Shown one piece after another: positions 21,545 to 42,946 of a stretch of DNA of 60,224 bases. A program made the position numbers and the translations under genes. Location: the NCBI GenBank assembly GCA_031431315.1, contig JANPDE010000456.1:1-60224 (forward strand), in the 5' to 3' direction. Numbering within the stretch: position 1 is the first letter of the stretch; each line of letters starts with the position of its first letter. This DNA comes from Haliea sp. Its GTDB lineage: Bacteria; Pseudomonadota; Gammaproteobacteria; Pseudomonadales; Halieaceae. The notes beneath the pieces are model-generated. The model had not been told where the DNA came from. It did no database searches and saw nothing but the letters and a program-made list of their open reading frames with translations.

Positions 21545-22048
21545 CTAACCCGGCGCTGCCAGCACGTCCCGGTCCAGCGCCACGCTGGTGCTGCGGCCCA
21601 GCAGTTCTATCAGCAGCAGCGCCCGGTCTTCGCTCTGGGGCATCTGGTAGACGCCGCTCAGCCCGGCGAAGGGGCCATCCAGAATATCCAGGGTGTCGCC
21701 GGGCTGGTGCGGCCAGGTCTCTCCCTGGCGTAGCCGGCTCTCGGGGTCTTCACACTGCCGGAGATAGTCGATCACGCTGGCCGGCACCGGCCGCAGCAGC
21801 TGGCCAAAGCGCACCAGTCCCGCCACGCCCTGGGTGGAGCGTACCGGGGCGAGACTGCTCTCGCCCGGGTCGACACGCATGAACAGGTAGCGCGGGAACA
21901 GGGGCTCCACCACCTTCGTCCACTTATCTCTTCTACGTTTGCGTAGCAGGACTTTCGGCAGATAGGTTTCAAAGTGCTGCCGTTGCAGGTGCAGCTCTGC
22001 AATGGCTTCTTGCCTGGGCTTGGTATGTACTGCGTACCAGCACTTCAT
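21545..22048 (-). CDS. rfaH: RfaH/NusG-family transcription antiterminator
   Basis: WYAVHTKPRQE, EPLFPRYLF, VRSTQGV, KOW motif GDTLDILDGPFAG, LIELLGR. Confidence 0.88.
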   Translation of the reverse strand: MKCWYAVHTKPRQEAIAELHLQRQHFETYLPKVLLRKRRRDKWTKVVEPLFPRYLFMRVDPGESSLAPVRSTQGVAGLVRFGQLLRPVPASVIDYLRQCEDPESRLRQGETWPHQPGDTLDILDGPFAGLSGVYQMPQSEDRALLLIELLGRSTSVALDRDVLAAPG

Positions 22049-22152
22049 ACCGTGTAATTCATGGGGCTTCCCGCAGTGTGCAGTACGGTCTCATCCGAGA
22101 CTTCCTGGGAAATCACATCGGGCGATAAGATTACGGTCTGATTGAGGTTCAT
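22045..22152 (-). pseudogene. Truncated PqqD/RRE (lasso B1) remnant, 35 codons
   Basis: MNLNQTVILSPDVISQEVSDETVL matches 22 of the first 24 aa of the PqqD at 42665-42946, then diverges; stop overlaps the rfaH ATG. Confidence 0.85.
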
Positions 22153-22269: not shown

Positions 22270-23193
22270 TCATCTACTGCTGGTTGCTGTCCGGGTGTGA
22301 GCACAAATCGCCGTATAGGTTTCGTGCATCCGTTCCATGTTCCAGGGGCGGCTCACCCGGTACACCAGGCTTTGGTCTGCCAGCTGGGCCAGCCAGCGCA
22401 GGCGCTGCTCCTGCAGGAAGTGGAAGCTGAACAGGTAGTTGGGCAGCAACTGCTCGAATTTGCGGAAGCCGGTGACTTCGGTGATCTCGATGCCGGCATG
22501 CGGCCCGGTCTGGTCGAGTGCGTAAAAGGCGTGGATCGGCCGCGCCTGCCGGGCAAAGTGCTCTATCGGGTTGCCCAGCACTTCAAACTGGCGGAAGGGC
22601 CGGTGGTGCGGGTGCGAAGGCACTGCATAATAGCGCCCTTGCTCGAGGAAGGTGGCCACCTTGTCGTCCGACAGCATGGGGTGGCCCTGCCTGAGGAAGT
22701 AGTCCCCCAGCGTGGACTTACCCCCCATGGAAGGCGCGATGAACAAAATTGGCTGCTCGTCCACCTCCACCGCGGCTGCGTGTATGAAGTCATAGCCCCG
22801 CTCCAGAGTGAGGTGCAGGGGCAGGAAGATGTGGACAAACCAGAAGACGAGTAAGGCCCGGTTACCCTCGTCACCGAGTTGGTAATAGATGACGGAGTCG
22901 CCCCCGGTCCAGCTGAAGTTCGCCACGCCTTCCACCTGCAGACACCACGGCTGGCCTGCGGCGCTGCGGGCCGCTTCGCGGTCGGTGCGCAGGTACAGCT
23001 CGCGGCCGTGGGTTGAATAGAAGGGCATGGTCTCGGCCAAGTACTCCGGGCGCGGCGCCGTCGCATCGGTGCCCGCCCGCCTCAACTCCAGCGTGCTATG
23101 CTCGCCCGGCGCTACTGCGCTCACCGGCGTCGGGCGATCAAATAGCGCAAATTCGCAGTCAACCTTCACCCCGTAGAGGCAGTGCTCAATCAT
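22270..23193 (-). CDS. HPr-kinase-related kinase (lasso peptide kinase-like)
   Basis: IHAAAV, Walker A variant APSMGGKSTL, LSDD; ATG 23193 overlaps the B2 stop. Confidence 0.8.
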   Translation of the reverse strand: MIEHCLYGVKVDCEFALFDRPTPVSAVAPGEHSTLELRRAGTDATAPRPEYLAETMPFYSTHGRELYLRTDREAARSAAGQPWCLQVEGVANFSWTGGDSVIYYQLGDEGNRALLVFWFVHIFLPLHLTLERGYDFIHAAAVEVDEQPILFIAPSMGGKSTLGDYFLRQGHPMLSDDKVATFLEQGRYYAVPSHPHHRPFRQFEVLGNPIEHFARQARPIHAFYALDQTGPHAGIEITEVTGFRKFEQLLPNYLFSFHFLQEQRLRWLAQLADQSLVYRVSRPWNMERMHETYTAICAHTRTATSSR

Positions 23194-23699
23194 GCGCGCC
23201 GCTCCCAGCTGAAGGTCGAAACCACGGTGAACTGCTCGTGGCCCGCCCTGCCATTCACAATATCGTCGCCACATTGCAACCAGGCATGGGCGGAAAGGCC
23301 CGTGGGGTCGTCAGTACGTTCACAGCCCCGGCGCACCCCCAGGTAAAACTGGCCGGGTATGTTGCGCTTCGCCAGCAGGCGCTGCGCCACCAACACCTGT
23401 GTCAGGCATAAGCTCTGCCAGGGGGTCACTCTACTGGCGGCGGCGACCAGCCGGCCTATGGCCATCGCCTCGTCGCGCATCCGCGGCGGCAGGGCAGGCG
23501 GCGGCATGGCGAGGAGATGGTGCTGCAATTTCCTGGACAGGCGCTTGAAGGAGACCAGCAGGACAGCCGCCCGGTACCAGCCCAGCATGAACCAGGCCTG
23601 CGCCAGCAGGAGCTTGTGGCGGGTGGGCAGGGCGGTGAATTTCTGCAGCCTGTAGGGCATGGGTGGCGCAGGTGGGCCTGTGTTGTGTAGGCTGGCCAC
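23190..23699 (-). CDS. Lasso peptide B2 leader peptidase (transglutaminase-like)
   Basis: SLCLTQ, LGVR, AHAWLQCGD giving a Cys-His-Asp triad; alternative start ATG 23660. Confidence 0.9.
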   Translation of the reverse strand: MASLHNTGPPAPPMPYRLQKFTALPTRHKLLLAQAWFMLGWYRAAVLLVSFKRLSRKLQHHLLAMPPPALPPRMRDEAMAIGRLVAAASRVTPWQSLCLTQVLVAQRLLAKRNIPGQFYLGVRRGCERTDDPTGLSAHAWLQCGDDIVNGRAGHEQFTVVSTFSWERRA

Positions 23700-23787
23700 T
23701 TTAGCAAAAGCACTAGTGCAATAGAATCAGCTGGTGACGTACTGCGGGATTTTGTTTCCCGAGCATACCCCACAAGGATACACACCA

Positions 23788-25611
23788 TTGAGTGGCTTCA
23801 TTGCTATGGTCAACGCCAGTGGCGCAACAGTTGACCGCAACTTGCTGGAAACGCTGACCGCTTCATTGCAGTGCCGCGGTCCTGACCGCCAGCAGATATG
23901 GGCGGACGGCCCGGTTGGGCTTGGCCATACGCTGTTTCGCACCACCCGTGAGGCACAGTACGAAAACCAGCCGGCAAGCCTTGACGGCATGGTGTGGGTC
24001 ACTGGCTGCATACGGGTTGATGGCCGCCAGGCGCTTGTCGAGGAACTGCGCCTGAATACGCCACTTTCACTCGCAAGCACCCCCGATTCAGAACTGGTGC
24101 TGCACGCCTACCACACTTGGGGTGAGCACTGCCTGGATCACCTGCTGGGTGACTTTGCCTTTGCCTTGTGGGACGGACACAAACGGCAGTTGTTTTGCGC
24201 GAGGGACCGCTTCGGCATGCGGCAGCTTTACCACGCCCAGGTGGGCGACACCTGCATTATCAGCAACAGCATGCATTGCATGCGCCAACACCCCGCCATT
24301 TCCAGTGAGCTGAACGATCAGGCCATCGGAGATTTTCTGTTGTTCGGTGACCACATCTGGACCGATAAATCCCAGACGGCCTTCAATGACGTAAAAACCT
24401 TACCACCCGCTCATCAACTGACTTTCTGCGCCGACAGAACGACAATCGGGCGCTATTGGGATCTCCCGACGGATGTGCCCTTGCTCAAGTATCGTCGCGA
24501 AGAACAATACCTGGAGCATTTTCGATCCGTATTCACCCAGGCAGTGGACGATCGCTTGCGTTGTGATGACGTGGTGATTTCGATGAGCGGGGGGATGGAC
24601 TCCTCCGCGATAGCCGCCACCGCCACAAAAATTCGCCAGCAAGGCGGCCGGGATTTTGGCCTGCAGGCGATTACTGTCGTGTATGACAAACTGCATCACT
24701 GTCAGGAAAGACATTACTCCGGCCTGGTGGGGGAGCACCTTGGTGTTCCGATTCAATACATCGTCGCAGATCATCACCCGCTGCTGGCGCCTGCGATGCA
24801 ATGGACGCGTCCACTAGAGTACTATCAGCCCAGCATATGGATAGAGATGGCCCAACAAACCCTGCTATCCGCGCGCGTTATGCTGATCGGCGCTGCCGGC
24901 GACAATCTGCTGTGCTATTGGCCGTTCTTACCCACTATGGCGGAGGCCAACCCACTGCAGACGCTGCGCCAGATTTTCCAACTCAAAGCCCGCTACGGAA
25001 GAATGCCCGGGCTGGGAACGGGGTTGAAAGCCCGCTGGAAAAGGATGGCAGGTAAACCGGCCGGAAAAAGAAATCCCCCTTACCCCTATCCACCCTGGCT
25101 GAATCAAGACCTGGCAGACAGGTTTGCAATGCAGGATCGATGGGATGCTCTATGGGCAACCTTGTTTACTGGCGCAACCAGGCATGGGCTGCATCGTGAC
25201 GCGCTGATGTCACCCAACTGGAACACGGACGATTTGGCTATGACCGGGTCTTTAATAGCGCCTGAACAGCGCGACCCTTATCTGGATCTCAGGCTGGTAA
25301 ATTTCGTGCTGTCCCTTCCGCCCATGCCATGGCTGTATCAAAAACATATCCTGCGACAAGGCGTCAAAAACTTATTACCAACAGCTGTTATAGAAAGACC
25401 GAAGCAGGCTTTGGGTGATTTGGCGAGTTCACTTATCGGACAAGCGGCATTCGATACGCAGCCTCCGAGTGGTGACCTGGATAAAGTTGACCTGGATAAA
25501 TATGTTAACGCAGCTGCTTTCAGAAAAGCCATTGCTGGGATTGGTGATGGAGGCCTGAATTATGTAAACCTGCGGCCCCCGATATTAAGACAGTGGCTCC
25601 AAATGCTATGA
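23788..25611 (+). CDS. Lasso cyclase (asparagine-synthetase-like) C1
   Basis: TTG start after AAGGA gives MSGF, with Ser in place of the catalytic Cys; RGPD, GDFAFALWD, SMSGGMDSS, RDPYLD; adjacent to B2 and a precursor. Confidence 0.85.
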   Translation: MSGFIAMVNASGATVDRNLLETLTASLQCRGPDRQQIWADGPVGLGHTLFRTTREAQYENQPASLDGMVWVTGCIRVDGRQALVEELRLNTPLSLASTPDSELVLHAYHTWGEHCLDHLLGDFAFALWDGHKRQLFCARDRFGMRQLYHAQVGDTCIISNSMHCMRQHPAISSELNDQAIGDFLLFGDHIWTDKSQTAFNDVKTLPPAHQLTFCADRTTIGRYWDLPTDVPLLKYRREEQYLEHFRSVFTQAVDDRLRCDDVVISMSGGMDSSAIAATATKIRQQGGRDFGLQAITVVYDKLHHCQERHYSGLVGEHLGVPIQYIVADHHPLLAPAMQWTRPLEYYQPSIWIEMAQQTLLSARVMLIGAAGDNLLCYWPFLPTMAEANPLQTLRQIFQLKARYGRMPGLGTGLKARWKRMAGKPAGKRNPPYPYPPWLNQDLADRFAMQDRWDALWATLFTGATRHGLHRDALMSPNWNTDDLAMTGSLIAPEQRDPYLDLRLVNFVLSLPPMPWLYQKHILRQGVKNLLPTAVIERPKQALGDLASSLIGQAAFDTQPPSGDLDKVDLDKYVNAAAFRKAIAGIGDGGLNYVNLRPPILRQWLQML

Positions 25612-25624
25612 AGCAAAGCGGCTT

Positions 25625-25795
25625 CTATGATCCCTGGCCGGGGGGAATCATAGTTCCCATGCTGTTGCCGGGGGTGTCATTTATGGTGTCAGGGCCGTTA
25701 TTCTGCGTAGTACGCGTTATGGACCCGAATGAGGTCAATGTAGGGGTGTCGTATGATTTTTTACAGGGTTTGCGAGTATCTGTTTCAGGTGTCAT
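25625..25795 (-). CDS. Lasso precursor A1 (56 aa); predicted core NNGPDTINDTPGNSMGTMIPPGQGS
   Basis: Leader YDTPTLTSFGSITRTTQ fits YxxPxLxxxGxxxxxT with Thr at -2; Asp9 acceptor; AAGGGA upstream. Confidence 0.85.
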   Translation of the reverse strand: MTPETDTRKPCKKSYDTPTLTSFGSITRTTQNNGPDTINDTPGNSMGTMIPPGQGS

Positions 25796-25931: not shown

Positions 25932-27074
25932 CTAACTAAATCGCTCAACCAGATCCTGCACAAACCGCAATGCTTCCGTATGTTCCTTGAAAAGCGCTCT
26001 ACGCTGCTCCTGTAATTCAGACGCAAGGTGCTCCACAGTCGATTCACCGTTCATCCGGCCGAGCAGCCAGAGCGCAGCCTCGCCTTTTGTACCGAGCGCC
26101 GGATGGTAATGCAGTGTTTTCTTTTGCATGTCTTCGAGCCTGACTGGTTGCGATAAAAACGAACTCTGGCGTTGGTGCTGGTCGCCCAGACGCGTGCTCC
26201 AGGACCATTCCCCCCGCTCAGGCCGCTTCAGGCTGAATCCGAGGCGATCTCCCTTTACCACCGGCAGCGGTTGGGCCAGGGGCATGAAGACCTGGTTCCA
26301 GTGGGTTTTGCAGCTTTCCCCGTCGGTCGACAGCCACTCGTCCACCAGCCGCATCTGGAACCAGCCCATCCAGCCGTGGCAAACTCCATTGCGCTGAACA
26401 GTGACTTCCACCTGGCTGTCGCATGCGGCTTTTGTCGCCGTGTTGAAATCCAGCTCCAACACCGCGACGGGCTCGGCCAGCCGCTGGGCCTGCATATGCT
26501 TCGCGCTGTCATGCCGCATGTAGTTTGCCGCGTAGGCCCGCAGCGCGCTGTAATCCAGCTCCGGCAAACCCTGCTCGTTACACACCCGGGGGAAGTCACC
26601 CCAGGACGCGACATGCTTGTCGTAGTAGGCGGGCGCAGTAACGGGAACGACTTCCATTCTCCCGCGGTCGGGAATCAGCCGGCCGCCGGGTGCCAGATAA
26701 TGGTCGCGGGCGTAAAAGAGCGATGGCAGCAGGTCTTCGCTGAGCAGGAAATTGCCGGTGAACACCGACACGATGACATCGACCCTGGTATCAAGCTGCA
26801 GTTCCTCCGCCCGGGCACGGATACATTCCACCGCGTCGAGCTGATTGTCGGCTGCGACGGTGCGGGCCACTTCAACGGCGACCGTGGGTTCAACCAGGTA
26901 CACCTTCGCTGCCCCCAGCCGCGCGGCAATAAGCCCGAGAACTCCAAGTCCCGCCCCCAGGTCCATGACCGTCGTGTCCGGGGTAATTACCTTTTTCAGG
27001 GCGCTGGTGTAGGCGGCATTGCGGGTGCCGTCAAACACCATGCCGCGGTGCCCCACTACATCTTTATAACTCAT
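25932..27074 (-). CDS. PRMT-fold (protein arginine methyltransferase-like) SAM methyltransferase
   Basis: HRGMVFDGTRNAAY, VMDLGAGLG, VYLVE, VDVIVS, ARDHYLAPGGRLIP and THWNQ align with PRMT1 motifs. Confidence 0.85.
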   Translation of the reverse strand: MSYKDVVGHRGMVFDGTRNAAYTSALKKVITPDTTVMDLGAGLGVLGLIAARLGAAKVYLVEPTVAVEVARTVAADNQLDAVECIRARAEELQLDTRVDVIVSVFTGNFLLSEDLLPSLFYARDHYLAPGGRLIPDRGRMEVVPVTAPAYYDKHVASWGDFPRVCNEQGLPELDYSALRAYAANYMRHDSAKHMQAQRLAEPVAVLELDFNTATKAACDSQVEVTVQRNGVCHGWMGWFQMRLVDEWLSTDGESCKTHWNQVFMPLAQPLPVVKGDRLGFSLKRPERGEWSWSTRLGDQHQRQSSFLSQPVRLEDMQKKTLHYHPALGTKGEAALWLLGRMNGESTVEHLASELQEQRRALFKEHTEALRFVQDLVERFS

Positions 27075-27207
27075 GATTTTCCGGCGCTTCCTTCAACTAT
27101 CATGGCGGGTAGCTTTCGTACTGCCCTTTTGTGTACGCTGGCCACTCTACCAAGCGCCTCCTGCAAAGACAAAAAGAGTCACTCTGGCGGCGCAGCTCGG
27201 GACCACC

Positions 27208-28833
27208 ATGAATTTCTCGGTACTGCTGACCTACATCACCCCGCATCGCCGCGTGCTTATGGCGGTGCTGGGCCTGTTGCTGGCGGGCAGCCTGGTGTCG
27301 CTGGCCAACCCCTGGATGGCGGGGCTGCTGACCGCCAGTGTGTTGGGCCAGGGTGAGCATGAGCCGAAGCTGATCCTGGCCCTGTGGCTTGGCCTGATGG
27401 CCACAACCAGTCTGATCGGCTTTTTTACCAGCTACCGCATTGGCACCACGGGGGAGCAACTGACAGCGGGGCTGCGCGAGCGGCTTCACCAGCACCTGCA
27501 GGCACTGCCCCTGGCTTACTACCAGCGGCGTCGGCCGGGCGAAACGCTGACCCTGCTCAGTGCCGACGCCGCCATTATCAGCAGTTTTGTGACCGCCACC
27601 CTGGTGCAGCTGCTGCCTGCCCTGCTCACCTTTATCGGGGCCTTTATCCTGATGGCATGGCTGGCCCCTGTCATCGCCCTGCTGGTCGTGCTGTTCCTGC
27701 CGGCCTACGTGCTTGCAATGAAGATCATGGGGCGGCAGCTGCGGCCACTGTCACGCGCATGGGTCGATGCTAACAGCCGCGTGGTGTCGGTGGTACAGGA
27801 AAACCTCGACATGCTGCCCGCCATCAAGGCCTTTACCCGCGAACAACACGAGCAGGGGCGATTTGAAGCGGTCAACCGGCAATTGCTGGCGCTATCGCAA
27901 CGGCAGCTGCGCTTACAGTCCCTGCTCTCACCCGCGATCGGCCTGCTGGGCGGGATCGGGCTTGTCGCCCTGCTGTGGATGGGCACCGCGCAGATAGAAA
28001 GCGGCCAGTTGGCGCCGTCACAGATGGTCAGCCTGCTGCTCTATGCCATGCTCCTGATGAGCCCGCTGAGCACCCTGGCCGACATTTACGGGCAGGTGCA
28101 GCGCACCCGCGGCAGCGCCGAGCGGATCATCGAATTCCTGGGGGAGCAACCTGAACCGGCGGATGAGGGCAACCGGGTGCTCGACCATGTAAAGGGCCGC
28201 ATAGAGTTCCGCGATGTCAGCTTCGGCTACCCGGGGCGCCCGCCCGTGCTCAGCCACTTCAACCTGGAGATATCCGCCGGTGAAACACTGGCGCTCACCG
28301 GCCCCAATGGCGCGGGCAAATCCACGCTCGCCCACCTGCTGATGCGCTTCGCCGACCCGGACGAAGGCGCCGTGATGATCGATGGCGTGGACACCCGCGC
28401 GGCCACCATCACCAGTGTGCGTGCCCAGATCGGCCTGGTGGCGCAGAATGTACTGCTGCTCAACGGCAGCGTGGCCGAGAATATCGCCTATGGGGAACCG
28501 ACAGTGAGCCGGGAAAAAATCGAGGCCGCCGCCAAAGCCGCCCATGCCCATGCCTTTATCACGCAACTGCCCGATGGTTACGATACGGTGATCGGCGACC
28601 AAGGCGTAAGGCTCTCTGGCGGCCAGCGCCAGCGCATATCACTGGCCCGCACCCTGCTGAAGGACCCGCCCATCCTCATCCTGGATGAGGCCACAGCCAT
28701 GTTCGACCCTGAGGGGGAGAAGGCGTTTATTGAAGAGTGTCGGGAGATGTTGGGGCGCAAGACGGTGATTTTAATTACTCATCGGCCAGCCAGTTTGGCG
28801 TTGGCGGACAGGACGATTAGAATTGAAACATGA
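27208..28833 (+). CDS. ABC exporter, fused TMD-NBD (lasso D-like)
   Basis: Hydrophobic N-terminal domain; GPNGAGKST, LSGGQRQR, LILDEAT. Confidence 0.9.
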   Translation: MNFSVLLTYITPHRRVLMAVLGLLLAGSLVSLANPWMAGLLTASVLGQGEHEPKLILALWLGLMATTSLIGFFTSYRIGTTGEQLTAGLRERLHQHLQALPLAYYQRRRPGETLTLLSADAAIISSFVTATLVQLLPALLTFIGAFILMAWLAPVIALLVVLFLPAYVLAMKIMGRQLRPLSRAWVDANSRVVSVVQENLDMLPAIKAFTREQHEQGRFEAVNRQLLALSQRQLRLQSLLSPAIGLLGGIGLVALLWMGTAQIESGQLAPSQMVSLLLYAMLLMSPLSTLADIYGQVQRTRGSAERIIEFLGEQPEPADEGNRVLDHVKGRIEFRDVSFGYPGRPPVLSHFNLEISAGETLALTGPNGAGKSTLAHLLMRFADPDEGAVMIDGVDTRAATITSVRAQIGLVAQNVLLLNGSVAENIAYGEPTVSREKIEAAAKAAHAHAFITQLPDGYDTVIGDQGVRLSGGQRQRISLARTLLKDPPILILDEATAMFDPEGEKAFIEECREMLGRKTVILITHRPASLALADRTIRIET

Positions 28834-28843
28834 TACCGAGTGA

Positions 28844-30580
28844 TTAGTTTAAATCCATCGACATGTTCAAAACCAGAATGGACCTTATCGCGGTAGTTAT
28901 ATCCACTATCAGTTCCTCCGGCGTTCCTGATTCTCTACGCGCTATTTTGTCCAGCAAAATATTTAGTTTAGCCCAGTCAATAAACGGGTTGTCCCTCGCG
29001 CCGGCCGGATGATCCGCATGCCACCGGGACAGGGCATCAACGCATATCTGAATGGCTTTCGCTATACGAACGGGTTCATTTTTGTGGATTGAAGCCCAGA
29101 CCTCCTGTGGTAAAAGGTCTCGTACTACATAGCGAAAAAGATATCGGGGATGGCCCTTGCGACGAAACATTTGTGCAGGTAGTCCCAACGCAAATTCCAC
29201 AATTCGCTTATCTAACAGCGGATAACGATACTCCACGCCAGCCCGCCGACCAGAGGCAGCCCAGGACTCCAGTCGACATAACACATGTCCCGCTTCCCAA
29301 TAGGCCAGCTGACTCTTTCGAACGGAATACCTGGGGTGCTGATCTACCGCGAAGGGCAGTGCACGAGCGCATTCAGCCAGGGCAGCAGACGCGGCACCCA
29401 GATAATCGGGTACGACCTGCCTTGAGATTAATCTCCGGGGCAGAAATGGCATCAATAGTTCGCGGCAAGCCAACGAAAAAAAGCTGCGAAAATGGTGATC
29501 ATTTTCGGCAGTCGCATGCCAAAGGTCGCGCAGGGTCGACAGCAGATTTCCCGCTAAAAGAGTTTCCGCATAGCGTTGATTTCCGTAATGTGTAATCAAC
29601 TCATCGCCGCCCCAGCCGGACAGAATTATTGAGCCTCCACTCGCGACTACTTCTTCCCTGACTGCGAACTCATACCAGCAATCCGCGGTATCACCGCCTG
29701 CTATGTTCAAATTCCGGAGCAACGACAGCATGCTGTCACTGTTGAATTCACAATAGTGCAAGTCAATATCGTACCGATTGGCTACGGATATCCCGGTGGC
29801 CCATTCCGGGTCGAGTGCCTCGGATGCGTTTTGCGGGGGAGCCAACCAACTGTATCCGGTGACAGAGGGTCCAGCTTTAGTCGCCTGCATTGCTGCCAGT
29901 GCTGCGATTGCAGAGGAATCGAGCCCGCCACTGAGGTGGACAGCCAGAGCGCCATGCCTGGGGATCCGGCAAGCAACCGCCTCCAGTAGTAGCTGGTGCA
30001 GCCTATCGGCGTAATCCTTCAGGGTAGGCAACATTACTCCAGGGCTATCCTCGGGGCGCCAGTAGATCCATTCCCTGATTTGACTGTCCTCGACGGTCAT
30101 GGCGCTGGCCCGGGGGAGCTTTCTTACTTTGTCGAAAAATGTCAGTCTGGAATCACGCAACTCACCATCGCGTAGATATAACGCCACCGCTTCGCGACAA
30201 ACACGCTTGGGTACAGGGCCACAATTTGTAATCGCAGATATGTCATCGGAGACAATCGCTGTAGCGTCATCTGCAAAGAAGTAGAAAGGCACTACGCCAA
30301 TATGGTCTCGGGCACAGAACACCCAATCATTAACCGGATCATCAATTGCGAACGCAAAATCACCCAGCAGGAATTCAGGGGTTTTTACTCCCCATTTCTG
30401 GTATGCAAGGAGGATAAGGGCATCATCAGAAAGGGCGTTAAGCGCCAGTGAAGGTATGCACAGCAGCTGGGCTAACTCGGCTCGATTGTCCAGCCGCGCT
30501 TTCGCGTCTATCGTTAGGGTTCTGGTAGCGGGAAGTGCAATTGAACGATGGGATCGTTGCCTCGCGAAACGGCCGAACAT
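28844..30580 (-). CDS. Lasso cyclase (asparagine-synthetase-like) C2
   Basis: No N-terminal Cys and shortened Ntn domain; ARLDNR, GDFAF, HLSGGLDSS, SGWGGDE, RYPLLDKR; 36 bp downstream of precursor A2. Confidence 0.85.
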   Translation of the reverse strand: MFGRFARQRSHRSIALPATRTLTIDAKARLDNRAELAQLLCIPSLALNALSDDALILLAYQKWGVKTPEFLLGDFAFAIDDPVNDWVFCARDHIGVVPFYFFADDATAIVSDDISAITNCGPVPKRVCREAVALYLRDGELRDSRLTFFDKVRKLPRASAMTVEDSQIREWIYWRPEDSPGVMLPTLKDYADRLHQLLLEAVACRIPRHGALAVHLSGGLDSSAIAALAAMQATKAGPSVTGYSWLAPPQNASEALDPEWATGISVANRYDIDLHYCEFNSDSMLSLLRNLNIAGGDTADCWYEFAVREEVVASGGSIILSGWGGDELITHYGNQRYAETLLAGNLLSTLRDLWHATAENDHHFRSFFSLACRELLMPFLPRRLISRQVVPDYLGAASAALAECARALPFAVDQHPRYSVRKSQLAYWEAGHVLCRLESWAASGRRAGVEYRYPLLDKRIVEFALGLPAQMFRRKGHPRYLFRYVVRDLLPQEVWASIHKNEPVRIAKAIQICVDALSRWHADHPAGARDNPFIDWAKLNILLDKIARRESGTPEELIVDITTAIRSILVLNMSMDLN

Positions 30581-30616: not shown

Positions 30617-30805
30617 TCAGGAACAGCCGAGGGTCATCTGACCAGGAGCGCACGGTGCCAAAAAATTGAAGAAGTTTTCGCCACCCGGAATAAAGGTACC
30701 ATTTGCAGTTTCACTCAAGCCTAAAGTGCTTACAACGGGCGTAGTCCACACTTTTTTGGTCACGGGTCCCGAGTCGCGGCGCTCAATGTTTACTTGATTA
30801 CTCAT
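30617..30805 (-). CDS. Lasso precursor A2 (62 aa); predicted core NGTFIPGGENFFNFLAPCAPGQMTLGCS
   Basis: Leader KKVWTTPVVSTLGLSETA is paeninodin-like (KKxWxxPxxxxLxxxxT) with Thr at -2; Glu9 acceptor; GAGGTGA RBS. Confidence 0.82.
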   Translation of the reverse strand: MSNQVNIERRDSGPVTKKVWTTPVVSTLGLSETANGTFIPGGENFFNFLAPCAPGQMTLGCS

Positions 30806-40520: not shown

Positions 40521-42668
40521 CTAAGCCGATGAGACCTCGACCGATACCCCGTTCACCGCGGCGTTCCCCGACAGTGCGTCCAGCACCAGATCATCGGTGA
40601 TGTCGTTGCAGCTTACGCCTGCATGGCGCGCCGCGACAGACAGTCGTATCCCTGCGCGGTCATGTCCGAAGCCGTGCGGCAGGCTGACCACGCCGGGCAT
40701 GATTTCCTCAGTGGCTTCCACGACAACCTGCAGTGTCCCCACACGCGAACGCACGCTGACTTCACTGCCTTGGGCAATGCCCCGCTGCTGCAGGTCATCA
40801 GGGTGCATCAACAGCGTACAGCGATTCTTGCCCTTCACGAGTCGCCGGTAGTTGTGCATCCAGGAGTTATTGGAACGCACATGACGGCGGCCAATCAATT
40901 GCAGCGGTCGCAGTTGCGGTTGATTGGATAATGCTGCTGCGGTGATGGGAAACTCACGGCGCACGCGGGCGAGGTCTGCCAGGGGTTCCGGCGTGTCACA
41001 ACGGATAGTCTTATCTTTGGTTTGCAGGCGAGCGGGCAATTGTGGTTGTAGCGCACCGAGGTCGATCCCGGAAGGATGCTCGCGTAATTTTGCCAGCGAC
41101 ATACCCTGCGTCGCATAGGGGCCGAATTGCAGTCCCAGATCGATGATCTGCGCCGGTGCCACGCTTGGCTGTGGTTCATTGCCCAACAACTGCGCCACGC
41201 GATTGCCCAACTCCGTGAAGATTTCCCAGTCGTGCAGGGCGCCGGCGGGCTTGTCGAAAACAGCTTCATTGAACCGCGCGGTATTGCGCACAGCATTGGC
41301 ATGAAAGGCAAGGTCGTAGTGATCGTGCTCCAGCGGCGATGTGGGCGGCAGAATAATGTCCGCGTGGCGCGTGGTTTCATTGAGATACGGGTCCAGCGAC
41401 ACCATGAATTCAAGCTGCGCCAGGGCTTCATCCAGTTGCCGTCCGTTGGGCGTGGACATGACCGGGTTGCCGGCGCCCGTGAATAGCGCGCGAATCTGGT
41501 GCTCTCCCGGCGTGGTGATCTCTTCGGCGAGTGTGGAAGCGGGAAACTCGCGATCGAATTCCGGCAGGCCGCGCACGCGACTGTGGTGGCGGGCAAAACC
41601 GCCGGGACTGCTGGTGCTCACCTGGTCTATCGCGGGCAGGGTGAAAAGCGAGCCGCCCGGAAGATCCAGATTGCCGGTGGCTATATTGATCAACTGAATC
41701 AGCCACTGGTTAAGGGCGCCATAGGCCTGGGTGGAAACGCCCATGCGGCCGTAGCAGATGGCCGCCCCGGCAGCGGCAAACTCCCGAGCCAGCCGGCGGA
41801 TGGTGTCGGCATCGATCTGCGTGTGCTGCGCGGCGTACTCCGCAGTGAAATCGTCAATGGCGTGACGCACCACGTCCAGCCCGCTGGTGAAATCGCGCAG
41901 GTGTGCGGTATCGTCCAGACCTTCACTCAGGATGGTGTGCAACACTGCCAGCAGGAACAGCGCGTCAGTGCCGGGCTTGATAAAATGGTGTTCACTGGCG
42001 ATTTGCGCGGTTTCCGTATGGCGTGGATCTAGCACGACCAACTTGCCGCCGCGCGCCTGCAGCGCCTTGATACGCTTTTTCACGTCCGGCACTGTCCAGA
42101 TACTGCCATTGGAAGCAATGGGATTGGCACCCAGCATCAGGAGGTAGTCGCTGCGGTCAATATCGGGTATGGGAAACAGGAACTTGTGGCCGAACAACCA
42201 CAGGGCTGCCAGATGGTGGGGCAGTTGATCCACCGAGGTGGCGGAGAAGCGGTTATTGGTGCGCAAGTGCCTGAACAGGTTGCCCTGGTGGGTCAGCATG
42301 CCGTGGTTGTGCACGGAGGGATTGCCCATATAGACGCCGATGGCGTGCACGCCGTTTTTTTCGTGCACAGCAACCAGTCCCTGTGCCGCGCTGTCCAGTG
42401 CCTCGTCCCAGCTGATCTCCTGCCATTGCATTTCCCCAGCAGCATTGGTAGTGCGCCGCAGCGGTTGCCGCAGGCGGTCCGGGTCCTCGTGGAAATCCTG
42501 CAAGGCCATCGCCTTGGGACAGACGTGGCCACGGCTCAGTGGGTCATTTTTGTCGCCCTTGATTGAGAGGATTTGATCGCCCTCGGTTTCTATCACCAAT
42601 CCGCAGATCGCCTCGCACAGGTGGCAGGCCCGAAAATGTGTTTTTCGTTCTGCGGACGCCTGACTCAT
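40521..42668 (-). CDS. Molybdopterin (bis-MGD) oxidoreductase with N-terminal 4Fe-4S motif, substrate unknown
   Basis: CHLCEAICG...GHVCPK, GANP, ETTRHADIILP, C-terminal molydopterin-binding domain (VSLPHGFG). Confidence 0.88.
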   Translation of the reverse strand: MSQASAERKTHFRACHLCEAICGLVIETEGDQILSIKGDKNDPLSRGHVCPKAMALQDFHEDPDRLRQPLRRTTNAAGEMQWQEISWDEALDSAAQGLVAVHEKNGVHAIGVYMGNPSVHNHGMLTHQGNLFRHLRTNNRFSATSVDQLPHHLAALWLFGHKFLFPIPDIDRSDYLLMLGANPIASNGSIWTVPDVKKRIKALQARGGKLVVLDPRHTETAQIASEHHFIKPGTDALFLLAVLHTILSEGLDDTAHLRDFTSGLDVVRHAIDDFTAEYAAQHTQIDADTIRRLAREFAAAGAAICYGRMGVSTQAYGALNQWLIQLINIATGNLDLPGGSLFTLPAIDQVSTSSPGGFARHHSRVRGLPEFDREFPASTLAEEITTPGEHQIRALFTGAGNPVMSTPNGRQLDEALAQLEFMVSLDPYLNETTRHADIILPPTSPLEHDHYDLAFHANAVRNTARFNEAVFDKPAGALHDWEIFTELGNRVAQLLGNEPQPSVAPAQIIDLGLQFGPYATQGMSLAKLREHPSGIDLGALQPQLPARLQTKDKTIRCDTPEPLADLARVRREFPITAAALSNQPQLRPLQLIGRRHVRSNNSWMHNYRRLVKGKNRCTLLMHPDDLQQRGIAQGSEVSVRSRVGTLQVVVEATEEIMPGVVSLPHGFGHDRAGIRLSVAARHAGVSCNDITDDLVLDALSGNAAVNGVSVEVSSA

Positions 42669-42946
42669 GGGGCAATCTGCAGTCGAATAAGGCCGCGCTG
42701 GCAGGCATCCGTGAGAAAGGCTTCAAGATCGGCGCCCAGTTGCGGTCCCTCAACCTCGTATTCTTCCAGCAGGGTGTTGTAGATGATGCGCAACTCACCG
42801 CTTTCCCGGATCAACTGCCAGATGCGCGTGCTCACCGCGTCCAGGCCGAAGTAGCACTCGCTTTCCAGGTCGAGTAGTACGGTTTCGCCGGAAACTTCCT
42901 GGTAGATCACGTCTGGTGAAAGGATTACGGTTTGATTCAGGTTCAT
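42665..42946 (-). CDS. PqqD-family RiPP recognition element (lasso B1), 93 aa
   Basis: QEVSGETVLLDLESECYFGLDAVSTRIWQLI...EEYEV...DLEAFL; GGAGGAG upstream; stop overlaps the oxidoreductase ATG. Confidence 0.9.
   Translation of the reverse strand: MNLNQTVILSPDVIYQEVSGETVLLDLESECYFGLDAVSTRIWQLIRESGELRIIYNTLLEEYEVEGPQLGADLEAFLTDACQRGLIRLQIAP

Follow-up and report, generated by a model that had tools for sequence, protein, structure and literature searches.

Introduction

The lasso peptide systems closest to the one described here are the paeninodin, pseudomycoidin and bsf clusters. They have A, B1, B2, C and D genes, an HPr-like kinase, and precursor cores that end in Ser, as does our cluster (PMC9266682, PMC10368454). 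However, the available text of these sources mentions no PRMT-fold enzyme, whereas our cluster encodes one, together with two cyclases and two precursors. Tailoring that depends on S-adenosylmethionine (SAM) is also known from lasso clusters. StspM and LasF form a C-terminal ester, while TceM and LihM are PIMT-like enzymes of aspartimide formation (PMC9266682). All are O-methyltransferases from families other than that of our enzyme, whose best Pfam, PDB and fold matches are PRMT-type. A first-pass annotation of this DNA had listed these two types as the known lasso methyltransferases, and left out longipeptin A, in which Met is S-methylated (PMC10664482).

Longipeptin A, from Longimycelium tulufanense, carries an S-methylated tail Met, and the sulfonium is described as surviving in the lasso tail (PMC10664482). 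This is the product chemistry that we predict here. The enzyme responsible is unproven. The tentatively assigned LopH was modelled on an MTHFR-related domain (6fcx), whereas our enzyme has a PRMT fold; note that LopH is compared by its published description. Furthermore, the LopH system yields one sulfonium alongside P450 cross-links, while the cores considered here contain 1–11 Met. In a literature search for Met sulfonium in RiPPs, longipeptin A stood alone among the matches listed.

In the literature covered, PRMT-fold enzymes are enzymes of arginine methylation. In PRMT1, two glutamates neutralise the guanidinium group (PMC8619983), and we follow that source in defining the SAM motifs and the double-E loop. 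A search for PRMT joined with lasso peptides or RiPPs found no such report, in a collection without most subscription journals or supplementary material such as tables of RODEO co-occurrence. For the Asn N-methyltransferases AerE and PoyE, which target D-Asn, the published account is of a GenN/PrmC-like fold and a Tyr-Asp-Na+ site. We considered AerE as a possible PRMT-like RiPP enzyme; the available text names GenN and PrmC as relatives, and neither PRMT nor arginine (PMC9060474). Against the structural model described below, PrmC has a Z score of 12.1, versus 32 for PRMT3, and AerE, absent among the matches listed, was compared by description. An N-methyltransferase pocket can act on peptidyl Met, as described for SETD3 when Met is put at its target site in an actin peptide (PMC8537074). 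Unlike our enzyme, SETD3 has a SET fold, works here on an engineered substrate and is no RiPP enzyme.

Results

A lasso peptide cluster encodes a PRMT-fold methyltransferase

We refer to the whole stretch of DNA analysed, 60,224 nucleotides from Haliea sp., as the window. Unless stated otherwise, features are on the minus strand. The methyltransferase, P0001, is a single open frame of 380 aa (25932–27074). As first annotated, it lies directly upstream of precursor A1 on the same strand; A1 starts 136 bases downstream. A1 (25625–25795; 56 aa) matches NCBIfam lasso_cyano with an E value of 3.7e-7 and 30 bits, where the cut-off is 33. Its predicted 25-aa core (25628–25702) has Asp9, Met15, Met18 and a C-terminal Ser. 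We inferred the cleavage site from Thr(-2), and core boundaries throughout were placed likewise. The second precursor, A2 (30617–30805; 62 aa), has a WxxPxV leader and a predicted 28-aa core (30620–30703) with Glu9, Met23, two Cys and a C-terminal Ser. Both agree with the general lasso precursor pattern, namely a YxxPxL leader, Thr(-2), and Asp or Glu at core position 7–9. Both predicted cores are free of Arg, as had been claimed, and also of Lys. This is not a trait of the family, since Arg occurs in 19 of 32 cores from loci with the same enzyme type (Val-type, see below).

Cyclase C1 is asparagine-synthetase-like (23734–25611, plus strand) and C2 is located at 28844–30580. The best family for both is NF033535, with scores under its cut-off of 525 (E 2e-93 and 314 bits for C1; E 5e-77 and 260 bits for C2). 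Leader peptidase B2 (23190–23699) matches NF033537 with 88 bits, above the cut-off of 33, and PF13471. The ABC exporter gene (27073–28833, plus strand) is divergent from the methyltransferase. A further gene (22270–23274) has weak HprK-related matches (best E 7e-5). By analogy with PadeK (PMC9266682), it may encode an HPr-kinase-like tailoring enzyme; the A1 and A2 cores both end in Ser.

The window holds two near-identical RRE copies, 20 kb apart. In the truncated B1/RRE gene (22081–22152), the first 24 codons alone match RRE, compared with a full-length RRE in a related locus (L001). The intact copy (42665–42946; 93 aa) is a PqqD-family RRE (PF05402, 58.9 bits) and, judged from its sequence, a candidate B1 that would act from 12 kb away. 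It precedes a gene (40521–42668) whose N-terminus matches that of the gene following the RRE in L001. Together, the two copies and this match suggest rearrangement of the cluster.

The cluster is set within a polysaccharide region, with glycosyltransferase and nucleotide-sugar genes, and rfaH (21545–22048) directly behind the lasso genes. Related clusters often adjoin O-antigen-ligase-like, polysaccharide-export and purA genes, labels that we assigned by reading translations. Contigs of close relatives covered A1 (214 nt with 5 differences, run X1) and the junction between A1 and the methyltransferase (X2), and in run X3 29 of 30 bins were covered; such contigs do not demonstrate transcription. 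In the RNA runs, only 6–8% of words matched. Promoter and terminator scans gave counts at chance level.

P0001 has a PRMT core and an altered double-E loop

The PRMT hallmarks are all found in the 380-aa frame, in the order first reported: H9-M12-D15-R18-Y22, DLGAGLG (38–44), VYLVE, VDVIVS, LAPGGRLIP and the THW loop (T257-H258-W259). SAM motifs I, post-I, II and III are present. The match to PRMT_C is above cut-off (E 1e-11), and the best 60 of 64 PDB sequence matches are all PRMTs. An AlphaFold model, built from 43 homologues, has a pLDDT of 92.4. It superposes on 15 PRMT entries with Z scores of 24–32, while the next fold has a Z score of 13.6; Foldseek was concordant. The best match is PRMT3, with a Z score of 32.0 and an rmsd of 1.9 across 291 residues, where the Rossmann and beta-barrel core aligns, so the PRMT fold first proposed from motifs alone is borne out by the model. 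Type I PRMTs (PRMT1, 2, 3, 6 and CARM1; PDB 2fyt, 5fub and 5is8) share this core, motifs I, post-I, II and III, Glu2 and the THW loop (Z 28–32, 25–27% identity). In contrast to these enzymes, P0001 is bacterial, embedded in lasso clusters, has FTGN in place of WMGY, and carries an additional C-terminal helical tail.

The double-E loop (26736–26765) is altered. The segment SVFTGNFLLSE pairs, residue by residue, with the double-E loop of PRMT2 (phmmer, E 3e-26). This places V104 (26763–26765) at Glu1 and E113 (26736–26738) at Glu2, and upholds the earlier reading that Glu1 has become Val while Glu2 is kept. We examined this position in the best 120 of 468 homologues; residue 104 was Val in 115 of them, Ala in five and Glu in none. 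In the same 120, E113, H258 and W259 occur without exception, and Asp114 is near-invariant. P0001 thus lacks one of the two glutamates (E144 and E153 of PRMT1) by which PRMTs are defined. Hence, despite the scaffold, a classification as arginine methyltransferase would be misplaced.

The tail (25935–26177; residues ~305–380), which the first-pass annotation had overlooked, forms three helices beyond the range matched by PRMTs. It weakly resembles the helical half of PqqD/RRE, having helices only and no beta-sheet. PqqD is the top structural match, with a Z score of 6.9 and an rmsd of 1.8 across 48 residues, and weak Pfam matches to PqqD, at E<=5, occur in the tails of 13 of 42 members (best 7e-4). 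A role of the tail as a working RRE that binds the leader is at most tentative. Of the three-helix bundle plus three-stranded sheet of an RRE, the sheet is absent, Foldseek gave no match below E 0.001, and profile comparison with the co-located B1 proteins was not significant (hhalign probabilities of 0.06% and 0.7%).

Loss of Glu1 coincides with lasso peptide genes

Loci were classed according to which residue occupies Glu1, a criterion independent of the peptides. The sample comprised 20 family genomes with close matches, 80 of 290 confirmed metagenome loci, 20 loci anchored on B2 and 20 further regions; cyclase, B2 or precursor genes were counted as lasso genes. Among loci of at least 8 kb, lasso genes were found in 25 of 27 with Val or Ala, in all six with Asp, and in none of 22 with Glu. 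The two Val exceptions have the methyltransferase near a contig end. For loci of any size, the numbers are 41/55, 17/24 and 1/42, respectively. The suggestion that the Glu to Val change tracks lasso neighbourhoods is therefore confirmed, and fold, Glu1 loss and linkage together tie a repurposed PRMT scaffold to lasso loci. We conclude that this is a real, conserved and apparently uncharacterised family of lasso tailoring enzymes.

Among the query and the best 150 representatives at 50% identity, Glu1 is Asp in 59, Val in 51, Glu in 22, Ala in eight, Cys in two and Asn in two, with seven gaps. In a quick tree of 56 rows, the sampled Val, Ala and Cys proteins form one clade (SH-aLRT 100), to which P0001 belongs. 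The Glu group includes stand-alone bacterial genes of the same family, with an intact SEWMG..E loop, and probably also takes in eukaryotic PRMTs.

Met in the core accompanies the methyltransferase

Precursors were found with a profile of leader sequences only, and identical cores were counted once. Among 55 Val-type loci, 24 had a detected precursor and 31 had none, many of the latter being on short contigs. The share of Met among core residues is 12.5% in 32 Val-type cores, versus 2.2% in 14 Asp-type and 2.2% in nine methyltransferase-free cores. Put differently, Met is present in 29/32 Val-type and 5/23 control cores (Fisher p 4e-7, kinship ignored). Of the Val-type cores, the three that lack Met each belong to a second precursor, at a locus where the other core has Met. 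Hence, counted by locus, a Met core occurs in 24/24 Val-type cases versus 5/23 controls. Both cores in the window conform; Met had not been considered in the first-pass annotation. The Met content of the cyclases is alike (2.0% versus 1.7%).

Note that the idea of Met arose from the first 21 loci. Outside this discovery subset, a Met core was present in 10/10 Val-type loci (p 3e-5 versus controls, kinship ignored). In genomes G1075 and G175, the Val-type gene is beside B2 and the precursor is elsewhere; as predicted beforehand, each core has four Met. A core with four Met also occurs in G1087, which carries the methyltransferase, while G1086 has a split methyltransferase gene and a core truncated to eight residues. 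Met cores without a Val-type gene in the locus are those of L132 (a 2.9-kb contig), Asp-type loci L086, L099, L105 and L113, and L193. At Val-type loci L037, L040, L042, L047, L056 and L073, no precursor was detected.

Most Met residues (79/90) lie beyond core residue 9, and an acidic residue occupies the lasso ring position (core residue 7–9) in 30/32 Val-type cores. Lys shows the reverse pattern to Met, being found in 11/32 Val-type and 20/23 control cores; His is depleted less. On average, cores have 0.9 Lys plus Arg and 3.0 Met with the enzyme, versus 2.6 and 0.39 without. For Asn, Gln, Arg, Asp and Cys there is no significant difference between Val-type and control cores.

Independent pairs and the nearest sister cluster

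Kinship was controlled on a tree of nearest cyclases with 47 rows. A further 16 precursors were excluded, since no cyclase frame of 300 aa or more lay within 2.5 kb of them, and three rows were coded positive because a Val-type gene occurs elsewhere in the same genome. Over 8 independent pairs, the presence of Met agreed with that of the enzyme in 6.1 and opposed it in 0.2 (median p 0.031, range 0.016–0.375). The median p stays at 0.031 if L193 is coded negative or the three rows are left out, and becomes 0.0625 with strict same-locus coding, 0.125 without Asp-type rows and 0.25 if at least two Met are counted. The result is modest, would fail correction for the 13 residues tested, and uses rows that overlap the discovery set. 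In the same test, the remaining 12 residues showed no such association with the enzyme. The presence of at least two Lys plus Arg runs opposite to the enzyme (4.5 versus 0.2 pairs, p 0.125).

The nearest sister cluster, L134, has a cyclase 73% identical and the same gene order. The methyltransferase is absent, and could not be found in the 85%-complete genome; both cores are Met-free. Finally, we clustered frames from 23 Val-type and 16 control loci. No other gene family was specific to Val-type loci, the two further families that emerged being apparently the methyltransferase gene's own antisense frames.

Discussion

A predicted peptidyl-Met S-methyltransferase

We propose, with a probability of roughly 60%, that P0001 is a peptidyl-Met S-methyltransferase, on a PRMT fold, that makes sulfonium lasso peptides. 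The argument is from sequence and modelled structure, and the support is correlative. Counting against it are the Met cores at loci without a Val-type gene, and those Val-type loci where a precursor or cyclase was not detected. The enzyme would transfer the methyl group of SAM to Met sulfur in the peptide tail, at Met15 and Met18 of A1 and possibly Met23 of A2. The product would be an S-methylmethionine sulfonium lasso peptide with a permanent positive charge. In the pocket, Val or Ala replaces the carboxylate that pairs with guanidinium, which would leave a non-polar slot for the thioether. Such an acceptor requires no deprotonation, and hence no base. The reported rates of uncatalysed methylation are close, at 1.2e-9 per M per s for a thioether versus 3.3e-9 per M per s for imidazole (bioRxiv 10.1101/2021.03.17.435195). 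The retained Glu113, with nearby aromatics F105, F109 and W259, may stabilise the cationic product. Methylation would probably be iterative, because Met-Gly runs in some cores contain as many as 11 Met. The positive charge of the sulfonium would substitute for the tail Lys and Arg of clusters without the enzyme.

Other acceptors have to be weighed against this. The near-invariance of Glu113, Asp114 and His258 means that an N- or O-acceptor fits too, since these residues could provide a base or anchor. The enzyme might thus act on the precursor at a backbone amide, the terminus or a side chain adjacent to Met, with Met serving for recognition or selected otherwise, such as for metal binding. 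This draws on the same linkage and co-variation as our proposal. However, the residues flanking Met vary (Gly, the most frequent, accounts for 32 and 28 of 90, and many others are present), the C-terminal residues of Val-type cores are highly varied, and the trade-off with Lys and Arg is left unexplained. We consider it unlikely. The first-pass annotation had suggested, among other acceptors, the side-chain amide of Asn or Gln, perhaps within a shared PGQ or at an Asn. This is the kind of site that AerE, PoyE and PbtM1 methylate. Amide N-methyltransferases do occur in RiPPs (PMC11285071) and Asn, in 27/32 Val-type cores, would nearly always offer a target. Yet Asn is as common without the enzyme (23/23), Gln is no better a marker (15/32 versus 11/23), and independent pairs gave no signal for Asn, at least two Asn, Gln, or at least three Asn plus Gln. 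Furthermore, PGQ is present in just 1/32 Val-type cores, and AerE is described as a different kind of enzyme (see Introduction). N-methylation of Asn or Gln is hence very unlikely.

The remaining alternatives place the substrate outside the core tail. P0001 could still methylate arginine, or lysine, in the leader, a biosynthetic protein or other cell proteins. It retains the H-M-D-R helix, Glu2 and the THW loop, and Arg is available both in leaders and in the 19 Val-type cores noted above. Against this, Glu is never found at Glu1 in the best 120 of 468 homologues, relatives with an intact double-E loop stand alone, away from lasso loci, and Val-type cores are depleted in basic residues rather than enriched. 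We regard such activity as hardly probable. Methylation of a small molecule or sugar, for instance free methionine, as by MmtN, or surface polysaccharide, is just as improbable. It would make the enzyme a hitch-hiker in a shared locus, which suits the surrounding glycosyltransferase, nucleotide-sugar and rfaH genes, and the persistence of the gene at L171 without cyclase or precursor. Conversely, the enzyme has kept an architecture for peptide binding, with the complete PRMT barrel and the THW loop, and presence of the enzyme predicts peptide composition across independent pairs.

If peptidyl-Met S-methylation is the correct reading, one pocket change would be able to convert an N-methyltransferase scaffold to an S-methyltransferase. 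Met sulfonium formation in ribosomal peptides would gain an assignable enzyme, one that might also serve as a biocatalyst to introduce sulfonium groups site-selectively. A sulfonium is diagnostic in MS/MS, where dimethyl sulfide (62 Da) is lost. A broader version, to which we give even odds, is that a bacterial PRMT lineage was rewired as an iterative Met S-methyltransferase for poly-sulfonium lassos (~10 Met), replacing Lys and Arg, while Asp-type enzymes perhaps moved separately toward Lys-rich cores.

Related loci and distribution

The precursor tails of L032, L034 and L045 have long Met-Gly repeats, with 9–11 Met. These are reminiscent of Met-rich copper-binding segments. Precursors homologous to A2 adjoin related cyclases in L043, L045 and L134. 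Like A2 itself, they have a leader that begins with Trp and a core that is rich in Phe, holds two Cys and ends in Ser, and their cyclases form a clade of their own. These A2-type precursors may be a disulfide-containing lasso subgroup. A further weak match to the leader profile (16.9 bits) lies outside the window, on contig C362 of genome G000.

Named homologues of P0001 are chiefly from Halioglobus and other Halieaceae, and Val-type genes occur in cultured Halioglobus maricola and Pseudohalioglobus lutimaris. The source genome has one copy, and a pattern scan of genome contigs with the single P0001 protein returned one locus. Searches at order and class level (400 and 399 scored genomes) found no new Val-type member. 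Their two strong matches were to Val-type genomes that the family search had turned up before, and the others fetched were Glu-type or not classed as Val-type. No relative was found on plasmids, or on viral contigs (0/41 candidates).

In several same-genus genomes (L171–L175 and L187–L190) the cluster is split, with B2 and exporter on one contig and cyclase and precursor on another; the methyltransferase accompanies either part. L171 retains the methyltransferase although neither a cyclase nor a precursor lies nearby, and its 80%-complete genome has no close cyclase. The Asp-type enzymes are a PRMT-fold sister clade in lasso loci (L082, L086, L089, L091, L093, L094, L099, L105, L106, L108, L112, L113, L127, L131 and L139), in which Glu1 is Asp, and Glu2 and THW are lost. 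Core Lys occurs at 13/14 loci, in many cases close to the end in a Lys-Thr or Lys-Asn pair. This hints that the acceptor differs and may be, for example, Lys. Other bacterial homologues (L025–L031 and L161–L167), of ~330 aa, found in several genomes of the family and away from RiPP genes, have an intact double-E loop and THW but no helical tail. These may be genuine arginine methyltransferases of bacteria. Finally, a 655-aa frame in L168 (G108:C15), where the double-E loop is intact, and in G127:C4 matches residues 1–137 of P0001 only, and may be the PRMT Rossmann part fused to another part.
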